Shown: in pieces, positions 20,733-27,524 of the stretch
Numbering within the stretch: position 1 is the first letter of the stretch
Layout: each line of letters opens with the position of its first letter
Source: a virus
Lineage: Duplodnaviria > Caudoviricetes
IMG/VR virus record: IMGVR_UViG_3300044262_000032
Coordinates: 25,676-89,675 of that record
Strand: one strand, 5' to 3'
Length of the DNA: 64,000 bases
Translations under genes and position numbers: made by a program
Notes under the pieces: model-generated
The model's database searches: none
Told to the model about the DNA's origin: nothing
The model's input: the letters and a program-made list of their open reading frames with translations, nothing else

Positions 20733-20846
20733 AGTAGATCATGTGCACCGTTGATATAAACGCAATGTTCGAAGGTACGGTGACCGCGTTATGTTATTTA
20801 GATCCAGATGTAGCTTTTATTCTATGGAGTGATGACAGCGCTGTCG

Positions 20847-20919
20847 TTCAACTTAGCTCAGTTGGCAGAGCAACGGCGTGCAAAGCCGTGGGTCATGGGT
20901 TCGAGCCCCATAGTTGAAT
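20847..20919 (+). tRNA. tRNA-Cys(GCA), no encoded CCA
   Basis: Cloverleaf; ACGGC-GTGCAAA-GCCGT; U73; unusual G32. Confidence 0.85.
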
Positions 20920-20971
20920 TAACGAGCGCGAAGGCCGGAAACAACTGACCAACCTACGGGAAATAGAACAT

Positions 20972-21049
20972 CGGGGTGTAGCTCAGCCTGGGTAGAGTTC
21001 CTGGTTTGGAGCCAGGATGTCGTAGGTTCAAATCCTACCACCCCGACCA
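20972..21049 (+). tRNA. tRNA-Pro(TGG)
   Basis: CCTGG-TTTGGAG-CCAGG; CCA. Confidence 0.95.
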
Positions 21050-21063
21050 ATATTGAAAGGAGA

Positions 21064-21166
21064 AGCGTCCTACTCGTCAGGCCCCTCCATTATGACGCGG
21101 GGGCAGGGTATCTAGAGGATAAGATCTCTAGATGAAAACCTCGGTGGAACAGCCACAGGGGACGCT
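21064..21166 (+). ncRNA. unassigned four-way-junction RNA
   Basis: AGCGTCC/GGACGCT closing stem around GCCCC/GGGGC, ATCTAGAG/CTCTAGAT, GTGG/CCAC. Confidence 0.55.
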
Positions 21167-21176
21167 AGTAAAACAT

Positions 21177-21260
21177 GCGGATGTGGTGGAATGGCAGACA
21201 CGCTGCGCTTAGAACGCAGTGGGTAAAACCGTGGGGGTTCAAGTCCCTCCATCCGCACCA
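21177..21260 (+). tRNA. tRNA-Leu(TAG), long variable arm
   Basis: CTGCG-CTTAGAA-CGCAG; CCA. Confidence 0.95.
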
Positions 21261-21278
21261 ACTCTAGAGGAGAATTGA

Positions 21279-21434
21279 ATGAACAACGAACGTCATCATT
21301 CACAGTTTCCATGGTGGGTTGGGGTTATCGTGAACGTAGTGTCTTTTCCAGGTGATGTGAAGGATGTCATTCAGACTAAGATTCGCAAGTTAAAAGAGAA
21401 GAAAGAAGCTGAGAAGAAAGAGTACATTCACTAA
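21279..21434 (+). CDS. small hypothetical protein (51 aa)
   Basis: GAGGAG SD; not in ORF track. Confidence 0.55.
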   Translation: MNNERHHSQFPWWVGVIVNVVSFPGDVKDVIQTKIRKLKEKKEAEKKEYIH

Positions 21435-21475
21435 GCTGGCGTAGACCAACGGCAGAGTCAACGGTCTGAGAGCGT
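21435..21475 (+). pseudogene. 5' half of a tRNA-Leu(GAG)
   Basis: GCTGGCG-TA-GACCAACGGCAGAGTC-A-ACGGT-CTGAGAG, then runs into the next tRNA. Confidence 0.75.
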
Positions 21476-21553
21476 GGCTAGGTAGACCAATTTGGCAGAG
21501 TCAATGGCATGAGAGGCCATGTAGTGGGAGTTCGAGTCTCCCCCTAGCTACCA
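21476..21553 (+). tRNA. tRNA-Leu(GAG), short variable loop
   Basis: ATGGC-ATGAGAG-GCCAT; 5-nt variable loop; A73; CCA. Confidence 0.88.
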
Positions 21554-21567
21554 GACGAGAAACTATC

Positions 21568-21595
21568 TTGACTTTCAAATCCCAAGAGTTATACT
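21568..21595 (+). promoter_or_regulatory. sigma70-type promoter for the HNH gene
   Basis: TTGACT-16 bp-TATACT. Confidence 0.55.
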
Positions 21596-21601
21596 TTGTG
21601 C

Positions 21602-22015
21602 ATGACTAAACAATGCAGCAGATGCCAAACGACACGCGAGTTATCAGCATTTCCAAAGAAGCGAGAGAGCTACTCAACAGTCTGTAAAATCTGTCAACGG
21701 GCATACTCAAAAACGTACTATGAACGGAATAAGAAGCGGGTATTAGCGAGACTCGTTACTAGTAAAAAGAAAAGAACGCTAGAGCGTAGACGTTTTATTC
21801 TAAAGATACTAGAGGCTGGCTGTACTCGGTGTAAAGAACTAGATCCAGTGGTCCTAGAGTTTCATCATCGAGATGGCAGGCGGCAGGGCTTAGATTTACC
21901 AGTGTCGAGATTGGTCTCAGCTTCGGAGTCCAGAATTTTAGAAGAGGTTTCGAAGTGCGAGATTCTATGTGCTAACTGTCATGCTAGAGTACATAGAGCA
22001 GGATGGATGAAATAG
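21602..22015 (+). CDS. HNH endonuclease
   Basis: CSRC..CKIC; CTRC..LEFHH..KCEILCANCHARVH. Confidence 0.88.
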   Translation: MTKQCSRCQTTRELSAFPKKRESYSTVCKICQRAYSKTYYERNKKRVLARLVTSKKKRTLERRRFILKILEAGCTRCKELDPVVLEFHHRDGRRQGLDLPVSRLVSASESRILEEVSKCEILCANCHARVHRAGWMK

Positions 22016-22023
22016 TACCATTT

Positions 22024-22099
22024 GGGGGTGTAGCCCAACGGCAGAGGCAATGGCCTTAAACCCCATTCAGTGTTGGTTCGAATCCAACCACCCCTACCA
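22024..22099 (+). tRNA. tRNA-Leu(TAA), short variable loop
   Basis: ATGGC-CTTAAAC-CCCAT (C31.C39 mismatch); CCA. Confidence 0.88.
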
Positions 22100-22111
22100 A
22101 AAGGAGTCGGC

Positions 22112-22420
22112 ATGTGCGATGAAGGATGTATCTGTAAAGGTAATTGGAGAGAGATTGTCAAGGAGATTGAACCGTTCTTTGGAAGACGCTACAAAGACGA
22201 AAATAAGAGAGAATACACTCTGTTCGGGGTAGTTCACGCAGATGATGATTACTACTACGGGCTAGTAGACACACGAGGGCGTTTAATGTTAGCATCATGT
22301 GTAGGCTCATTAGAGACTAGTGGGTTTACATTAATAGAGGGGAAGAAACAGGCCTTTACACCAGAACAAGAGTTGTTAAAGGAAATCTTTGGGGAAACAG
22401 AGGAGGAGAACGATGACTAG
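22112..22420 (+). CDS. hypothetical protein
   Basis: AAGGAG SD; FFGVVHADDDYYYG-type acidic motif. Confidence 0.7.
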   Translation: MCDEGCICKGNWREIVKEIEPFFGRRYKDENKREYTLFGVVHADDDYYYGLVDTRGRLMLASCVGSLETSGFTLIEGKKQAFTPEQELLKEIFGETEEENDD

Positions 22421-22757
22421 GAAGCCGATTATTATTGCCGCAGCAGTAGCTCTAGGTCTTGTTGTAGCCGCAACGGTCTATGCTAAGGTGATTGGGTTTG
22501 CGTGGGATGCAAACACAGAGCCCGATCTTGCCGGCTATAAGCTCTACTGTGGCACGACCGTTGGTGGGCCGTATACATTTGTTAAGCAGATGACAGCAGC
22601 AGAACTAGCTACCTCCAATAACTTTGGTGAGGGTCGTGGCTACTGCGTTCTGACGGCGTTTGATACGGTCGGGAATGAATCGGGGTATTCGAATGAGGTG
22701 ACGTTTCTCGTCGACGAAACGCCGCCGGCTGCCCCGCGTAATTTCAGACTTCAGTAA
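22413..22757 (+). CDS. secreted fibronectin type III domain protein
   Basis: Signal peptide; AWDANTEPDLAGYKLY..LTAFDTVGNESGYSNEV. Confidence 0.85.
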   Translation: MTRKPIIIAAAVALGLVVAATVYAKVIGFAWDANTEPDLAGYKLYCGTTVGGPYTFVKQMTAAELATSNNFGEGRGYCVLTAFDTVGNESGYSNEVTFLVDETPPAAPRNFRLQ

Positions 22758-22786
22758 TTGGGTTAAACGGTTATTTGGATATTAGG

Positions 22787-22862
22787 AGGCGTGTGATGGA
22801 ACGGCAGACATACAGTGCTCAAACCACTGGTTCTGTGGGTTCGAATCCCACCACGCCCACCA
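22787..22862 (+). tRNA. tRNA-Leu(CAA), short variable loop
   Basis: CAGTG-CTCAAAC-CACTG; A1.C72; CCA. Confidence 0.88.
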
Positions 22863-22867
22863 CTCTG

Positions 22868-22943
22868 AGCCCCGTAGCTCAGCTGGCAGAGCAGAGGACT
22901 TTGAATCCTCGTGCCGAAGGTTCGAATCCTTCCGGGGCCGCCA
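22868..22943 (+). tRNA. tRNA-Gln(TTG)
   Basis: GAGGA-CTTTGAA-TCCTC; A1.C72; G73. Confidence 0.92.
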
Positions 22944-22953
22944 GTCTGACTAC

Positions 22954-23027
22954 GGGGCAATGGTGTAATGGAAACACAGGGGCCTCCAAAACCTCTGACG
23001 GGGGTTCGATTCCCTCTTGCCCTGCCA
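22954..23027 (+). tRNA. tRNA-Trp(CCA)
   Basis: GGGGC-CTCCAAA-ACCTC; G73. Confidence 0.9.
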
Positions 23028-23102
23028 TTCGAAAACGACGAGGTGCCCCCACGGCCTTGGTTGGGGGTTGAATGTAGGAGCCAGCGTCCTACAGCCCACA
23101 TT

Positions 23103-23180
23103 GCCACCCTAGCTCAGCACGGTAGAGCGGCAGGTTGAAGCCCTGCGACGTCGGTGGTTCAAATCCATCGGGTGGCACCA
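23103..23180 (+). tRNA. tRNA-Phe(GAA)
   Basis: GCAGG-TTGAAGC-CCTGC. Confidence 0.95.
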
Positions 23181-23186
23181 TTTCAA

Positions 23187-23263
23187 GCCTCTGTAGCTCA
23201 GTAGAATAGAGCGCCTCGCTACGAACGAGGAGGGCGTGGGTGCAATTCCTACCAGGGGCTCCA
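23187..23263 (+). tRNA. tRNA-Arg(ACG)
   Basis: CCTCG-CTACGAA-CGAGG; T-loop TGCAATT. Confidence 0.92.
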
Positions 23264-23264
23264 T

Positions 23265-23340
23265 GCTCCCGTAACTCAGCGGGTAGAGTGGCTGGCTTTT
23301 AACCAGAACGTCGGGGGTTCAAATCCCTCCGGGAGCACCA
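23265..23340 (+). tRNA. tRNA-Lys(TTT)
   Basis: GCTGG-CTTTTAA-CCAGA. Confidence 0.95.
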
Positions 23341-23357
23341 TATAAATAGGAGACGCA

Positions 23358-23516
23358 ATGACACAGGAGCAGTATAGAGAGTATTTACTGGCACTAACGA
23401 TTGCGTTCATTCACTCACGGGAATGTGCAAATGATTATGCGGTATTTAAGGCGAAGAAAACGCTGGATCAAATAGGGGAACTTGTAGTAGAGAGATTCTC
23501 GATGCACAAAGATTAG
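23358..23516 (+). CDS. small hypothetical protein (52 aa)
   Basis: AGGAG SD; not in ORF track. Confidence 0.55.
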   Translation: MTQEQYREYLLALTIAFIHSRECANDYAVFKAKKTLDQIGELVVERFSMHKD

Positions 23517-23523
23517 ATGTCGT

Positions 23524-23598
23524 AGCCGGGTAGCTCAATGGCAGAGCAGCTGGTTCTGAGCCAGTAGGTTGTGGGTTCAACTCCCTCCCCGGTCGCCA
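23524..23598 (+). tRNA. tRNA-Gln(CTG)
   Basis: GCTGG-TTCTGAG-CCAGT; A1.C72; G73. Confidence 0.9.
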
Positions 23599-23599
23599 T

Positions 23600-23674
23600 G
23601 CCCCGTTAGCTCAGTAGCAGAGCGCCGCTCTTACACGGCGGGCGTCGGAGGTGCGAATCCTTCACGGGGCACCA
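23600..23674 (+). tRNA. tRNA-Val(TAC)
   Basis: CCGCT-CTTACAC-GGCGG; T-loop TGCGAAT. Confidence 0.92.
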
Positions 23675-23680
23675 TTTTAA

Positions 23681-23756
23681 GCCCTCGTAACTCAGAGGTC
23701 AGAGTGACCGGCTCTTACCCGGAACGTCGCAGGTTCGACTCCTGCCGAGGGCACCA
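23681..23756 (+). tRNA. tRNA-Lys(CTT)
   Basis: ACCGG-CTCTTAC-CCGGA. Confidence 0.95.
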
Positions 23757-23757
23757 C

Positions 23758-23786
23758 TTGACAGTAGATGATATTTAGTTTAGATT
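23758..23786 (+). promoter_or_regulatory. internal sigma70-type promoter in the tRNA array
   Basis: TTGACA-17 bp-TAGATT. Confidence 0.6.
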
Positions 23787-23814
23787 GACGAAATCAACAA
23801 AAGGAGTCTAATGA

Positions 23815-23886
23815 TGCGGGGGTTCCAGCGAACAGAGATGCCTCATAAGCAACTCAAGGTGGGTGCGACTCCCATCCCCGCTACCA
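23815..23886 (+). tRNA. degenerate initiator-like tRNA-Met(CAT)
   Basis: TGCGGGG/CCCCGCT with T1.T72, CTCATAA loop, intact T arm, collapsed D arm. Confidence 0.65.
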
Positions 23887-23893
23887 AGTTTAT

Positions 23894-23967
23894 GGGGGGT
23901 TCGTATAACGGGATTACGTCAGCTTTGCAAGCTGATCATCGGGGTTCGACTCCCCGACTCTCCACCA
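23894..23967 (+). tRNA. tRNA-Ala(TGC)
   Basis: TCAGC-TTTGCAA-GCTGA; G3.U70. Confidence 0.95.
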
Positions 23968-23970
23968 AAC

Positions 23971-24044
23971 AGCCGGGTCTTCCAACGGTAGGAAAAGCGG
24001 CCGATAACCGCTCAACCGTGGTTCAATTCCACGCTCGGCTACCA
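23971..24044 (+). tRNA. tRNA-Ile(GAT)
   Basis: AGCGG-CCGATAA-CCGCT; C33 in place of U33. Confidence 0.88.
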
Positions 24045-24053
24045 GTTCTACAT

Positions 24054-24137
24054 GCGTCGGTGACCCGAGATAGCAAGGGGGCTAGCTACAACCTAGCTGG
24101 GCAACCACGTCGGGTGCGAGTCCCGAACGACGCTCCA
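24054..24137 (+). tRNA. atypical long-variable-arm tRNA with ACA (Cys) anticodon
   Basis: GCTAG-CTACAAC-CTAGC; TGG-GCAA-CCA variable arm; U73; CCA. Confidence 0.8.
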
Positions 24138-24144
24138 TCTTTAC

Positions 24145-24219
24145 TGCGCGGTACTCTAGCGGTAAGAGACCTCCCTGTTAAGGAGATTGTCGCAGGTTCG
24201 ATCCCTGCCCGCGCAGCCA
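24145..24219 (+). tRNA. tRNA-Asn(GTT)
   Basis: CCTCC-CTGTTAA-GGAGA; U1-A72; G73. Confidence 0.93.
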
Positions 24220-24267
24220 TTTACTGCGCGAATAATAATAGATTCCCTACTAAAAATGGAGGAACTA

Positions 24268-24888
24268 ATGAACACTGCAACGTACAACGGTGATGTTCAA
24301 AACGTACTAAATAGTGAGAACACCTACCCCTGGCGTCCATCACGTGGTGTATGGAGAGAAGTTCCAATTCCAGGTGAAGATGAAAAATTAGTTATTACCT
24401 TTAGAGGTATGCCGCAGCAGGGCGCGGAAACAAATCCAGCTGGCTATAATTCTGTGCTGAATATGGTTGATGCAAATGATCTGATCTGGCTGACGTTCGG
24501 CACGGGTCTTTCAGTGACCGTATCCCAAAGACCGGCTGGTGGGCCAAACGGAGATTACTGGGGCGATGTGTCGATGGGGCAGACTGGTGAGCCTGTGCCG
24601 GGAACGCCAGGCCTGCTGAACGATGCGTTTGGGGATATCACAGAGATATGGACTTATACACTCAACCGACCAGCGGTGGGAAACCCATCGCTAGATGTGA
24701 CTGGAAGCAAGCATGGTGCGGCTGTGTGGCACTGGATGTCGCCTATCGCAAGCTATGCCGGTATGAGAATGATGATTGGGTGGTGCGCCCCCGAGACATC
24801 TATCTCTGAGCTGTTTACCCAAACAGGCGTACATCTAAGTGGATGTGTGGATGTCGAGTATCTATCAGTAGCTATTGAGTCTATTTAG
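24268..24888 (+). CDS. hypothetical protein (206 aa) inserted in the tRNA array
   Basis: GGAGG SD; no motif recognised. Confidence 0.75.
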   Translation: MNTATYNGDVQNVLNSENTYPWRPSRGVWREVPIPGEDEKLVITFRGMPQQGAETNPAGYNSVLNMVDANDLIWLTFGTGLSVTVSQRPAGGPNGDYWGDVSMGQTGEPVPGTPGLLNDAFGDITEIWTYTLNRPAVGNPSLDVTGSKHGAAVWHWMSPIASYAGMRMMIGWCAPETSISELFTQTGVHLSGCVDVEYLSVAIESI

Positions 24889-24912
24889 TATAAAGATAGG
24901 AGAGGTAATCTT

Positions 24913-24989
24913 GGCCCCATTGGCTAGTGGCCTAGGCCGTAGGACTTTCAATCCTACATTCGCGGGTTCGAATCCCGCTGGGGCTACCA
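24913..24989 (+). tRNA. tRNA-Glu(TTC)
   Basis: TAGGA-CTTTCAA-TCCTA. Confidence 0.95.
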
Positions 24990-24996
24990 TTTTAAC

Positions 24997-25071
24997 GGCC
25001 CCAGAGTCAGATAGCCACGACACTGCCCTGTCACGGCAGAGGACCGGGAGCGTAACCCGGTGGGGTCGCCA
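24997..25071 (+). tRNA. tRNA-Asp(GTC), atypical T-loop
   Basis: CTGCC-CTGTCAC-GGCAG; T-loop AGCGTAA; G8; G73. Confidence 0.88.
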
Positions 25072-25120
25072 TTATCTCTTCTATAGACCACACTCGTCGA
25101 GTACAGGCGGTAGTAGTTAA

Positions 25121-25206
25121 GCTGGGGTAGCGAAGTGGTTGAACGCAGCTGCCTTGTAAGCAGCAGGGGTAACCCCACGCAGGTTCGAATCCTGTCCCCA
25201 GCTCCA
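25121..25206 (+). tRNA. tRNA-Thr(TGT) with long variable arm
   Basis: GCTGC-CTTGTAA-GCAGC; GGGG-TAA-CCCC arm; G1-C72, C2-G71, U73. Confidence 0.88.
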
Positions 25207-25213
25207 TAAACTT

Positions 25214-25292
25214 GCGGGCTTGGCCGAGTGGTTGAAGGCACTAGTCTTCCAAACTAGGATCACCGTGGGTTCGAATCCCACAGCCCGCTCCA
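25214..25292 (+). tRNA. tRNA-Gly(TCC)
   Basis: CTAGT-CTTCCAA-ACTAG; U73. Confidence 0.93.
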
Positions 25293-25396
25293 ATCTTAGA
25301 ATCTTTTGCAAGAGACTCTAAGCGCTCATTGGGAAGGGGGAGCGAAAACGGTACCGGAACGCCGTCCCCTTTTCAAAACTTTAAAAGGAGAGCACG

Positions 25397-25630
25397 ATGA
25401 CTGACACAGAACTTTTAGATTGGTTTGAAGATAAAGGTGCAATTGTATGTGCGGCCCTAATCAATGACGATAATGGGCATTGGGCTGTGTCTACAACAGG
25501 TATGCAGAATGTTATTGTCGGCGATGGACTCGGGGATGTACAGACTACATTCTTTATCGAGGCGGCCGATTGGAAGCGCAGTGTACGCGAGGCGATCCTC
25601 GCGTTTAAGGACCAGTACGAGTCCTATTAA
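25397..25630 (+). CDS. hypothetical protein
   Basis: AAGGAG SD; begins MTDTELLDWF. Confidence 0.75.
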   Translation: MTDTELLDWFEDKGAIVCAALINDDNGHWAVSTTGMQNVIVGDGLGDVQTTFFIEAADWKRSVREAILAFKDQYESY

Positions 25631-25633
25631 CTT

Positions 25634-25835
25634 GGGCGATCGCGCACCCCCAGAAACTCTCGATGCTCAGATATTAGATTGGACACCTAATATTAAGAAG
25701 ACGAGGAACTCGTCGCTGCCCGAACCCGGCAAGAGCTAGAGAGGACGCGAACACTCGTAAACGGGCGACCGTGCACCCGTAAAAACAGTGATGACTCAGG
25801 CGCAGGGTTCCTGGCGGTTCTCTACTGAGGTCGCT
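25634..25835 (+). ncRNA. unassigned multi-domain structured RNA
   Basis: Nested stems and two copies of the hairpin GGGCGAYCGYGCACCC. Confidence 0.55.
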
Positions 25836-25852
25836 GGACACGGACACTTTAT

Positions 25853-25939
25853 GGATGGGTCGCTCAACGGTGGAGCAGCTGTCTTGAAAACAGCCGGGCC
25901 TAACAAGTCATGGGGGTTCGAATCCCTCCCCATCCGCCA
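25853..25939 (+). tRNA. tRNA-Ser(TGA)
   Basis: GCTGT-CTTGAAA-ACAGC; long arm; G73. Confidence 0.95.
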
Positions 25940-25956
25940 ATCTAAAAGGAGACGAG

Positions 25957-26301
25957 ATGTATCCTTGTGCTAAACAGCGAGTGCTCTGTGAGATTAGGGA
26001 TCTTGAGACTGGTAAGTCGTACTGGGGCGAGAATGTATGCTCTTACTATCAATACAAATGCCCACGCGGTGATATGGAGCCAGGAGTTGGCTATGAACTA
26101 TGCGATAGTATGTGCGGACAGGAAGGTCACGCTGAGGAGCAGGCGCTAGAGGCAGCTGGAAAAGATCAGTGGTCGGATCCCTTTAAAAGGGCTTTAGCTC
26201 TTGTTTATGGTCAAACTAGAGTATGCGAACGCTGTAAAGATCAGTTGCAGCGCGCGGGGGTTGAGACCATAATTCTAGTTAAAGGATCGGAGGTAATTTA
26301 A
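25957..26301 (+). CDS. Zn-dependent deaminase (CDA fold; dCMP deaminase-like)
   Basis: GHAEEQAL and VCERC metal/catalytic motifs; CAK..V.C..GEN.C..CPR. Confidence 0.8.
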   Translation: MYPCAKQRVLCEIRDLETGKSYWGENVCSYYQYKCPRGDMEPGVGYELCDSMCGQEGHAEEQALEAAGKDQWSDPFKRALALVYGQTRVCERCKDQLQRAGVETIILVKGSEVI

Positions 26302-26302
26302 G

Positions 26303-26479
26303 AGATTGGCGGAAGGCGAAAGCGGGCTAACCACCCACCCCACCAGATAGGGGAGTTAACGGGCTAGGGGCGCGCTGCCGTGGTGGCAGCAGGCATGGCG
26401 AAAGCCACGATCCGCCGAAATCCCTAGCTGAGGGCATTATAGGCAAGCCCCTCACTAAGATCAGGTCTGGCGCCAATCT
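26303..26479 (+). ncRNA. unassigned structured RNA with probable pseudoknot
   Basis: 9-bp AGATTGGCG/CGCCAATCT closing stem, 9-bp GGCTAGGGG/TCCCTAGCT, GAAA-capped hairpins, loop CCAGAT complementary to GTCTGG. Confidence 0.65.
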
Positions 26480-26498
26480 AGTTTGAAAGGAGATTGAA

Positions 26499-26672
26499 AT
26501 GGAAATCTGTGAGATTTGCGGTAACTACTATAGCGAGGAGTTAGAGAGCGGTCTGTTTACTCTCTACAGTGCCAAGAATAAGATTGTTATGCACGAGCAT
26601 ATGTGTGGTAGTTGTGGGGAGAATATCAGACATTACATACTAGGAATGATAGACGCTAATAGTGAGATGTGA
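26499..26672 (+). CDS. small Zn-finger protein (57 aa)
   Basis: AAGGAG SD; CEIC..CGSC; not in ORF track. Confidence 0.6.
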   Translation: MEICEICGNYYSEELESGLFTLYSAKNKIVMHEHMCGSCGENIRHYILGMIDANSEM

Positions 26673-26673
26673 T

Positions 26674-26748
26674 GGTGTCGCTAGTTCAACGGTAGAACCT
26701 GTGACTGTGGCTCACAGTATCGGGGTTCGATTCCCCGGCGACACACCA
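26674..26748 (+). tRNA. tRNA-His(GTG)
   Basis: TGTGA-CTGTGGC-TCACA; encoded G-1 opposite A73. Confidence 0.93.
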
Positions 26749-26749
26749 T

Positions 26750-26835
26750 GCGTCGGTGAAGGGGAGTGGCATCCCTGCGGGCTGTAAACCCGCCGCCTTC
26801 GGGCACGCTAGGTTCGATTCCTAGACGGCGCACCA
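26750..26835 (+). tRNA. tRNA-Tyr(GTA)
   Basis: GCGGG-CTGTAAA-CCCGC; long arm; A73; extended acceptor-D connector. Confidence 0.9.
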
Positions 26836-26848
26836 TTTTGGAGGAGTT

Positions 26849-27016
26849 ATGAAGCACGAGAAGGAAGTAAAGTACGGCGCAGAGGACGGATGTATCTGCG
26901 GCCATCCCGAGTATCTTCACTGGGGCAATGCCCTCGGGCACTGCAAAGCTTGCAGTTGCTGGGGGTTCAGACGCCCAGTTATACGCAGTTTATCGAAAAT
27001 AGATAAACCTCAGTAA
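26849..27016 (+). CDS. small Zn-binding protein (55 aa)
   Basis: GGAGGAG SD; CICGH..H..CKACSC..F; not in ORF track. Confidence 0.65.
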   Translation: MKHEKEVKYGAEDGCICGHPEYLHWGNALGHCKACSCWGFRRPVIRSLSKIDKPQ

Positions 27017-27029
27017 ACTCAATATAACT

Positions 27030-27106
27030 GCCCCTATAGCTCAGCGGAATAGAGCGAGTGGTTTCTACCCACGAGGTCGGGGGTTCAAATCCTCCTAGGG
27101 GCGCCA
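27030..27106 (+). tRNA. tRNA-Arg(TCT)
   Basis: AGTGG-TTTCTAC-CCACG. Confidence 0.93.
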
Positions 27107-27107
27107 A

Positions 27108-27125
27108 TTTACAAGCGCTTGAAAA
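27108..27125. promoter_or_regulatory. 18-bp palindromic site, copy 4 (TTTACAAGCGCTTGAAAA)
   Basis: Intergenic, directly before the SD of 27136. Confidence 0.65.
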
Positions 27126-27135
27126 GAGAGGGGTC

Positions 27136-27363
27136 ATGCGTATACCTCTGATGAAGTCTTTTAAGGACTTCTCCGAGAAACCTATCGGTTTCATTGAGAT
27201 TGAAAACGATGAAGTGCCAAATGATCCACAGTTTTGCTTTGCTCTTGGCTATACGTATACAAACACGAATGGACTGCCACGAGTAGAGCCGATATGCGCG
27301 GCTATTGTAAGTGATGATGAATATAGGAAATTTCTAGATTCTGATCAGTCAAAGGTTCGCTAG
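27136..27363 (+). CDS. hypothetical protein
   Basis: GAGGGG SD; 75 aa. Confidence 0.65.
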   Translation: MRIPLMKSFKDFSEKPIGFIEIENDEVPNDPQFCFALGYTYTNTNGLPRVEPICAAIVSDDEYRKFLDSDQSKVR

Positions 27364-27438
27364 CCCCCTTGGCCTAATAGTTAAGGCAACCGGCTCATAA
27401 CCGGCAGATTGTGGGTGCGAATCCTACAGGGGGCACCA
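27363..27438 (+). tRNA. tRNA-Met/Ile2(CAT)
   Basis: ACCGG-CTCATAA-CCGGC; T-loop TGCGAAT; Met vs Ile2 not resolvable by eye. Confidence 0.88.
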
Positions 27439-27439
27439 T

Positions 27440-27524
27440 GGAGAGGTCTCCTAATGGTATGGAAGCAGTTTGCTAAACTGCCGCCCGAAAGGGTGTGTGG
27501 GTTCGATCCCCACCCTCTCCGCCA
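27440..27524 (+). tRNA. tRNA-Ser(GCT)
   Basis: GCAGT-TTGCTAA-ACTGC; long arm; G73. Confidence 0.95.

Follow-up and report, generated by a model that had tools for sequence, protein, structure and literature searches.

What fills the ORF-free gap 26302-26498 in a phage tRNA array, and is it a functional RNA in its own right? The window, that is, the whole 64,000 nt stretch of DNA analysed here, comes from the 89.7 kb record of an uncultured virus and contains 26 tRNA genes in one array, at 20846-27524 (ARAGORN). A DNA polymerase gene (PolA) lies directly 3′ of the array, with ThyX, a RecA-like protein, a helicase and structural genes nearby. Just 5′ of the array, an ORF at 19929-20558 matches the outer-membrane beta-barrel family OMP_b-brl (E = 1.6e-9), which hints at a Gram-negative host.

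An initial annotation, made from the letters of the window only, had proposed that a pseudoknotted non-coding RNA of 177 nt fills the whole spacer, and the extent agrees with the ORF-free gap. Comparison with two homologues now suggests that this element is a small structured RNA, about 175-200 nt long, that belongs to a hitherto undescribed family. We give this reading a probability of roughly 80%, including the proposals that the RNA acts in trans and is processed along with the tRNA cluster. The structure drawn in the initial annotation was largely right and its interpretation is partly supported.

All helices named in that annotation are present in the window (Table 1), and the comparison trims some of them. 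The terminal helix P1 has the nine perfect pairs claimed for it, of which seven form the conserved core in the homologues, with an invariant UGG/CCA at its centre (3/3). Likewise, the helix annotated as the 9-bp 'GGCTAGGGG' keeps eight pairs as P3, and its ninth, a G.U pair, is not conserved. The GC-GAAA-GC mini-hairpin does not survive: the homologues read GACAAAGT there, which makes the GC/GC pairs impossible, so that a conserved unpaired motif is the better description of the purine-rich linker. Downstream of it, P1a has a base-pair probability of 0.73 and three invariant G-C pairs, the pairs flanking these being present only in the two homologues. A linker rich in A leads into the 3′ strand of P3. 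The place of P3b is kept in the homologues while its length and loop vary, and the P4 loop is partially conserved (CAWU...AAG). One homologue (L052) carries a 22-nt insert just 5′ of AAGATCAGG, which by eye is likely to form a hairpin. The invariant unpaired motifs are GAAKGnnAAAG and AAGAUCAGG. We propose that P1 stacks on the pseudoknot helix because the two have a single uninterrupted 3′ strand in common. In several tRNAs of the array the terminal CCA runs into ATCT or ATTT (25935-25943; also 22939, 25288 and 27102), and the 9-mer that covers the end of tRNA-Ser and the start of its trailer (25935-25943) is an exact copy of the P1 3′ strand, so the P1 5′ strand is also complementary to the tRNA-Ser 3′ end.

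Table 1. Coordinates of the element, its parts and its neighbours (window numbering unless a contig is named). The by-member rows give the two strands of each covarying helix in the order window; L052; L056, with the number of compensatory pairs.
Feature	Position	Strand	Sequence	Compensatory pairs	Remarks
RNA A	25631-25852	+			Conserved, non-coding; directly upstream of tRNA-Ser(UGA)
tRNA-Ser(UGA)	25853-25939	+			ARAGORN; kept upstream neighbour of the element
tRNA-Ser(UGA), homologous loci	L052 1189-1275; L056 197-286				Upstream of the homologue
Deaminase-like ORF	25957-26301				114 aa / 345 nt; 5′ flank of the element in the window
Element	26303-26479	+			177 nt
P1, 5′ strand	26303-26311	+	AGATTGGCG		Closing helix; kept core 26305-26311
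Purine-rich linker	26312-26322	+	GAAGGCGAAAG		Consensus GAAKGnnAAAG (alignment A4); contains the supposed GC-GAAA-GC mini-hairpin
P1a hairpin	26324-26336	+	GGG/CCC		3 bp in window, 4-5 bp in homologues
P2 hairpin	26338-26341/26350-26353	+	CCCC/GGGG		8-nt loop ACCAGATA; stem invariant 3/3
Pseudoknot, 5′ strand	26343-26348	+	CCAGAT		Bases of the P2 loop
P3	26362-26369/26422-26429	+			Three-way-junction domain 26362-26429
P3a	26374-26379/26385-26390	+	GCTGCC/GGCAGC		Inside P3
P3b	26396-26399/26404-26407	+	TGGC-GAAA-GCCA		Inside P3; GAAA loop
P4 hairpin	26430-26434/26449-26453	+	GAGGG/CCCTC		14-nt loop; stem invariant 3/3
Invariant motif	26457-26465	+	AAGATCAGG		Identical in window, L052 and L056; final G (26465) opens the pseudoknot 3′ strand
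Pseudoknot, 3′ strand	26465-26470	+	GTCTGG		Continuous with P1 3′ strand; one U.G pair
P1, 3′ strand	26471-26479	+	CGCCAATCT		9 perfect pairs with 26303-26311
Cys-rich zinc-ribbon ORF	26499-26672				57 aa; 3′ flank of the element in the window
tRNA-His(GUG)	26675-26748	+			ARAGORN; kept downstream neighbour of the element
P1 by member			ATTGGCG/CGCCAAT; GCTGGTA/TACCAGC; GCTGGTA/TACCAGT	4/7	
Pseudoknot by member			CCAGAT/GTCTGG; CCACGC/GCGTGG; CCAAGC/GCTTGG	2/6	Plus one U.G to C-G
P3 by member			GGCTAGGG/CCCTAGCT; GCCTTGAG/CTCAAGGT; GCCTGCAT/ATGCAGGT	5/8	
P3a by member			GCTGCC/GGCAGC; GGCTCG/CGAGCC; GCCCGT/ACGGGC	5/6	

Taken from the window alone, the fold is at chance level. The minimum free energy of the element (-70.5 kcal/mol) gives z = -1.28 to -1.37 against dinucleotide shuffles, 9-bp inverted repeats 100-250 nt apart number 38 in the window against about 34 expected, and 23% of shuffles contain a 6-bp pairing of some kind between unpaired segments, although the specific pairing of loop and tail arises in only 1.9%. 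Composition sets the element apart more clearly, its G+C content being 61% against 48% for the window, a level reached by 0.28% of 177-nt windows; these are mostly tRNA clusters, plus the element and a few stretches inside coding genes. The edges of the G+C peak match those of the element, which is among the top 0.4% of windows by folding energy.

The window sequence being insufficient, the decisive evidence is the compensatory change seen in two homologues. A protein search with the neighbouring PolA returned relatives at 45-76% identity in metagenome assemblies, among them a 16-kb Logan contig (L052) with a PolA 70% identical and a syntenic tRNA array. A single-sequence model of the window element (R1) matched this contig at 1283-1453 (39.1 bits, E = 9e-8), and the homologue, delimited by eye at 1280-1477, exactly fills the gap between tRNA-Ser(UGA) and tRNA-His(GUG). 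The gene caller had placed a spurious ORF of 165 aa (L052:1187-1684) across tRNA-Ser, the element and tRNA-His. Used as a probe, its translation led to a 2-kb contig (L056) that R1 matches at 299-476 (55.3 bits, E = 3.6e-11), with the homologue at 301-474, likewise between tRNA-Ser(UGA) and tRNA-His(GUG). In these two contigs tRNA-Ser lies 4-14 nt upstream of the element, and tRNA-His follows it at 10 nt (L052) or 13-15 nt (L056). The address between the two tRNAs is therefore kept in three related phages, whatever ORFs lie nearby. The three members, 174-198 nt long, come from related uncultured phages of one clade. Both homologues sit in short unannotated assembly contigs and were reached only via the neighbouring polymerase gene and the spurious ORF; such ORFs, called across RNAs and deposited in protein databases, offer a way to reach RNA homologues.

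Mean column identity over the three members is 73% (alignment A4), and with the pseudoknot written in 96.1% of the cells are paired. Both sides changed in 10 of the 35 pairs of this alignment. Shuffles gave 4.4 ± 1.6 such pairs, with none of 500 reaching 10, and slid controls gave 0-2. As the MAFFT and model-based alignments (A4, A6) gap 2 nt inside the P3 5′ strand of the window, the tool count understates P3, and the helices were also tabulated in structural register. That table holds 16 compensatory pairs and no broken pair in any sequence. The pseudoknot proposed in the initial annotation is borne out by these changes in three sequences: its pair 4 is G-C, C-G and A-U in window, L052 and L056, respectively, covering three Watson-Crick kinds, while pair 5 reads A-U, G-C, G-C and pair 6 U.G, C-G, C-G. 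In the P3/P3a/P3b domain the sequence varies and the shape is kept, since the domains of all three members fold separately into the same three-way junction. An alternative pairing of the GGGG run, returned by RNAalifold with two sequences, is excluded by the P3 covariation. P2, P4 and the P1a core are invariant, so that covariation neither supports nor contradicts them. G.U pairs occur on the + strand at P3 pair 1 (3/3), pseudoknot pair 6 (window) and P1 pair 1 (L056); they would be A.C mismatches on the opposite strand, and the element is thus assigned to the + strand. A formal covariation test of the R-scape kind needs more sequences than these three, all of which come from one phage clade. 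Judged on three sequences only, the helices are kept through compensatory changes, which indicates that the fold is that of a real, conserved, pseudoknotted non-coding RNA, a structured RNA of the kind proposed in the initial annotation.

Does this RNA belong to a known family? A cmscan search of the whole window against Rfam 15 at the gathering score returned tRNAs only, and a search with each of the three members at E ≤ 10 under permissive filters gave chance-level matches only: Mu-gpT-DE at E = 1.4, and CRISPR-DR and snoRNA models at E > 1. The Mu-gpT-DE match is weak and confined to the ribosome-binding site of the next ORF. The riboswitch and self-cleaving ribozyme classes of Rfam 15 gave no family match. 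A full-text search of the literature for the AAGAUCAGG motif found nothing relevant. The suggestion of a possible new class stands, since no Rfam family matches any member.

Individual resemblances nevertheless deserve comment. The raiA motif RNA, to which the initial annotation had loosely likened the 3′ part, is similar in being about 200 nt long and pseudoknotted; it is known as a chromosomal RNA of Firmicutes and Actinobacteria rather than as an RNA of phage tRNA clusters. Its covariance model matches none of the three members at E ≤ 10, and the likeness has to be given up. GOLLD and ROOL, which were recently shown to form nanocages, come closer in setting. Both are structured RNAs of phages and prophages, often near tRNA clusters and with unsolved roles, both have pseudoknots, and GOLLD can hold tRNAs in a linker (PMC12286853). 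The element is likewise phage-encoded and pseudoknotted, and its tRNA-cluster setting, for which the initial annotation had drawn the parallel, agrees with theirs (PMC12286853). They differ in size, GOLLD and ROOL having about 500-800 nt or more against the 174-198 nt of the members, and no Rfam match to either was obtained.

Bacterial RNase P RNA shares with the element a terminal P1 helix and a long-range pseudoknot, and the GAAAGCGGGC of the element loosely resembles what we take to be the conserved GGAAAGUCCGGGC of RNase P RNA. This likeness is weaker in the homologues, which read ACAAAGTGGGT. Even the smallest bacterial forms are about twice as long as the element, and no RNase P family (bacterial A/B, archaeal or other) matched at E ≤ 10. 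Identity with GOLLD, ROOL or RNase P RNA, all named in the initial annotation, is thus not supported, as none of the three members matches their models.

Species 1 and 2 of phage T4 have been known for about 50 years. These RNAs (rnaC, rnaD) are stable, about 120-140 nt long, lie inside a phage tRNA cluster and have no assigned function (PMC9697503). As with the element, they are small RNAs beside tRNA genes whose terminal helix joins the 5′ and 3′ ends. However, T4 rnaC has a tRNA-like T-arm (GGGTTCGAATCCC) near its 3′ end, which the element does not have, while a pseudoknot and a three-way junction distinguish the element. When the T4 tRNA region was searched with R1, filters off, the highest score was 8.6 bits (E = 0.19), with no meaningful match to either RNA.

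The position of the element suggests a route of maturation. Promoter-like sites lie upstream within the tRNA array, and no promoter-like or terminator-like site was seen at the element, which is probably co-transcribed with the tRNA cluster and may be set free by the enzymes that mature its neighbours. On the 3′ side, RNase P would cut at the 5′ end of tRNA-His; on the 5′ side, an endonuclease would cut in the A/U trailer after tRNA-Ser, and exonuclease trimming would then proceed back to P1, which would protect both ends. In the window the element is flanked by inserted ORFs and not by tRNAs, so release there would need other cuts. Once released, the RNA would act in trans through its invariant unpaired motifs, and such a compact folded RNA could bind a protein or a small ligand during infection, possibly together with a second conserved RNA (RNA A) upstream of tRNA-Ser.

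That the element, alone or with RNA A, represents a new functional class (a ligand-binding or catalytic fold, or a tRNA-embedding composite acting on the host tRNA or translation machinery) is a tentative proposal, and we consider it rather improbable. If true, it would be a new functional class and not just another lineage-specific stable RNA. Phage tRNA clusters repeatedly hold structured RNAs with unsolved roles, of which the element is a compact example of about 180 nt, with a covariation-supported pseudoknot, clearly laid-out domains and a constant place in the genome. Its size suits chemical probing, crystallography or cryo-EM, and pull-downs of ligands or proteins.

The counterparts of RNA A are L052:907-1188 and L056:1-196 (mean column identity 69%, with long invariant blocks), and no Rfam match to it was found in L052. 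The arrangement of RNA A, tRNA-Ser and element hints at a functional link to one tRNA, and tRNA-Ser(UGA) may be a partner or a target of the two RNAs. An explanation that overlaps with the main one goes further and takes RNA A, tRNA-Ser(UGA) and the element as a single composite RNA, comparable to the GOLLD forms that sometimes hold tRNAs in their linker (PMC12286853). The two RNAs flank the same tRNA-Ser(UGA), and they occur together on all three contigs of the family, whereas the fetched loci (608 kb searched, by nhmmer for RNA A) contain neither of them elsewhere. RNA A is itself conserved, with 10 pairs changed on both sides (RNAalifold, three sequences). However, an ORF of 345 nt lies between tRNA-Ser and the element in the window, so contiguity is not needed; each RNA looks self-contained, the element with its own closing helix and RNA A with a separate RNAalifold fold. 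Their conserved motifs show no obvious complementarity by eye, and no GOLLD or ROOL match is found. Of the alternatives, a single composite unit seems to us possible although doubtful.

A role in cis fares far worse. The element could be a leader or riboswitch for the 57-aa zinc-ribbon ORF, with the P1 3′ strand switching to a weak hairpin. In the window, P1 ends 7 nt 5′ of the ribosome-binding site AAGGAG (26487-26492), and CAATCT (26474-26479) could instead pair with AGATTG (26491-26496) near that site. However, tRNA-His follows 10-15 nt after the element in both homologous contigs, with neither the ORF nor the alternative hairpin there; L052 does have a similar ORF start (MEVCEVCGKK, resembling by eye the MEICEICGNYY of the window) elsewhere, 3′ of tRNA-Tyr. 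The upstream ORF, named deaminase-like after a weak Pfam match (dCMP_cyt_deam_1, E = 0.005), is also missing at the element in L052 and L056, so the element is not the leader of either flanking ORF and such a role is very unlikely. Synteny thus already appears to refute this reading in large part, and the Rfam riboswitch families are unmatched. The 114-aa and 57-aa ORFs have no homologues among 5.8 billion protein clusters, and the tRNA array appears to gain and lose small ORFs.

Equally improbable are readings of the element as a tRNA that is decayed or unusual, as a mimic of a tRNA, or as a tmRNA-like gene. The GCGCCA-ATCT at the 3′ end of the element recurs where tRNA-Ser passes into its trailer, the CCA of the element is invariant in all three members, and the pseudoknot and P1 strands are continuous, as are the T-stem and acceptor 3′ strands in a tRNA. 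However, that CCA is base-paired inside P1 and not single-stranded, and a T-loop motif is absent. ARAGORN at default settings finds nothing, and only with introns allowed and an 80% threshold does it call a mismatch-ridden 'tRNA-Thr' interrupted by a 183-nt intron, and this on the opposite strand; Rfam gives no match to its tRNA and tmRNA models.

Least probable of all is that the fold arose by chance in a G+C-rich spacer or that the sequence is a DNA-level element (such as an inverted-repeat mobile element or a recombination site), a reading for which the terminal inverted repeats and the non-significant single-sequence statistics would speak, and which appears refuted, as far as sequence comparison can go, by synteny in three phages, compensatory changes in four helices with none broken, strand-specific G.U pairs that point to RNA, and a single genomic copy around which no target-site duplication was seen.

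The small structured RNA favoured here has a restricted distribution. A model built from the three sequences (R2) found, over all fetched loci (608 kb), only the window and the two homologous contigs, and it had no match in a sample of 302 bacterial genomes, to which two classes contributed 151 each. In blastn searches of the INPHARED phage genomes neither the element nor a 10-kb region was matched, and a 6.8-kb query matched tRNAs only. PolA and capsid proteins of cultured phages are less than 31% identical to those of the window, so that the phage has no close cultured relatives. Exact and degenerate pattern scans of IMG/VR and GTDB genomes gave chance matches only, which R1 and R2 rejected. 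The element is absent from two IMG/VR relatives, a complete 120-kb genome with 2 tRNAs (G001, PolA 56%) and a fragment without tRNAs (G002, portal 69%), as well as from L054 and L055 (the 55% PolA clade), L053 (65%) and L057. On another contig (P0040, read from its protein), tRNA-Ser is directly followed by a tRNA-Tyr-like sequence, and the element is not at that spot. Further PolA relatives, several of them likely carriers, include the SRR34261198 contig (P0006, PolA 72%) and a 114-kb contig of SRR23086384 (P0009, PolA 64%), the latter with the ThyX, gap, PolA order of the window. Since L053, L055, L057 and the P0040 contig have tRNA arrays without the element, the family is narrow and dispensable as far as present data go. 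The PolA of G001 (L003:9989-13582) has 1197 aa against 827 aa in the window phage and carries a large insert in the polymerase domain that is most likely an intein, and several other relatives have a PolA of 1100-1197 aa.
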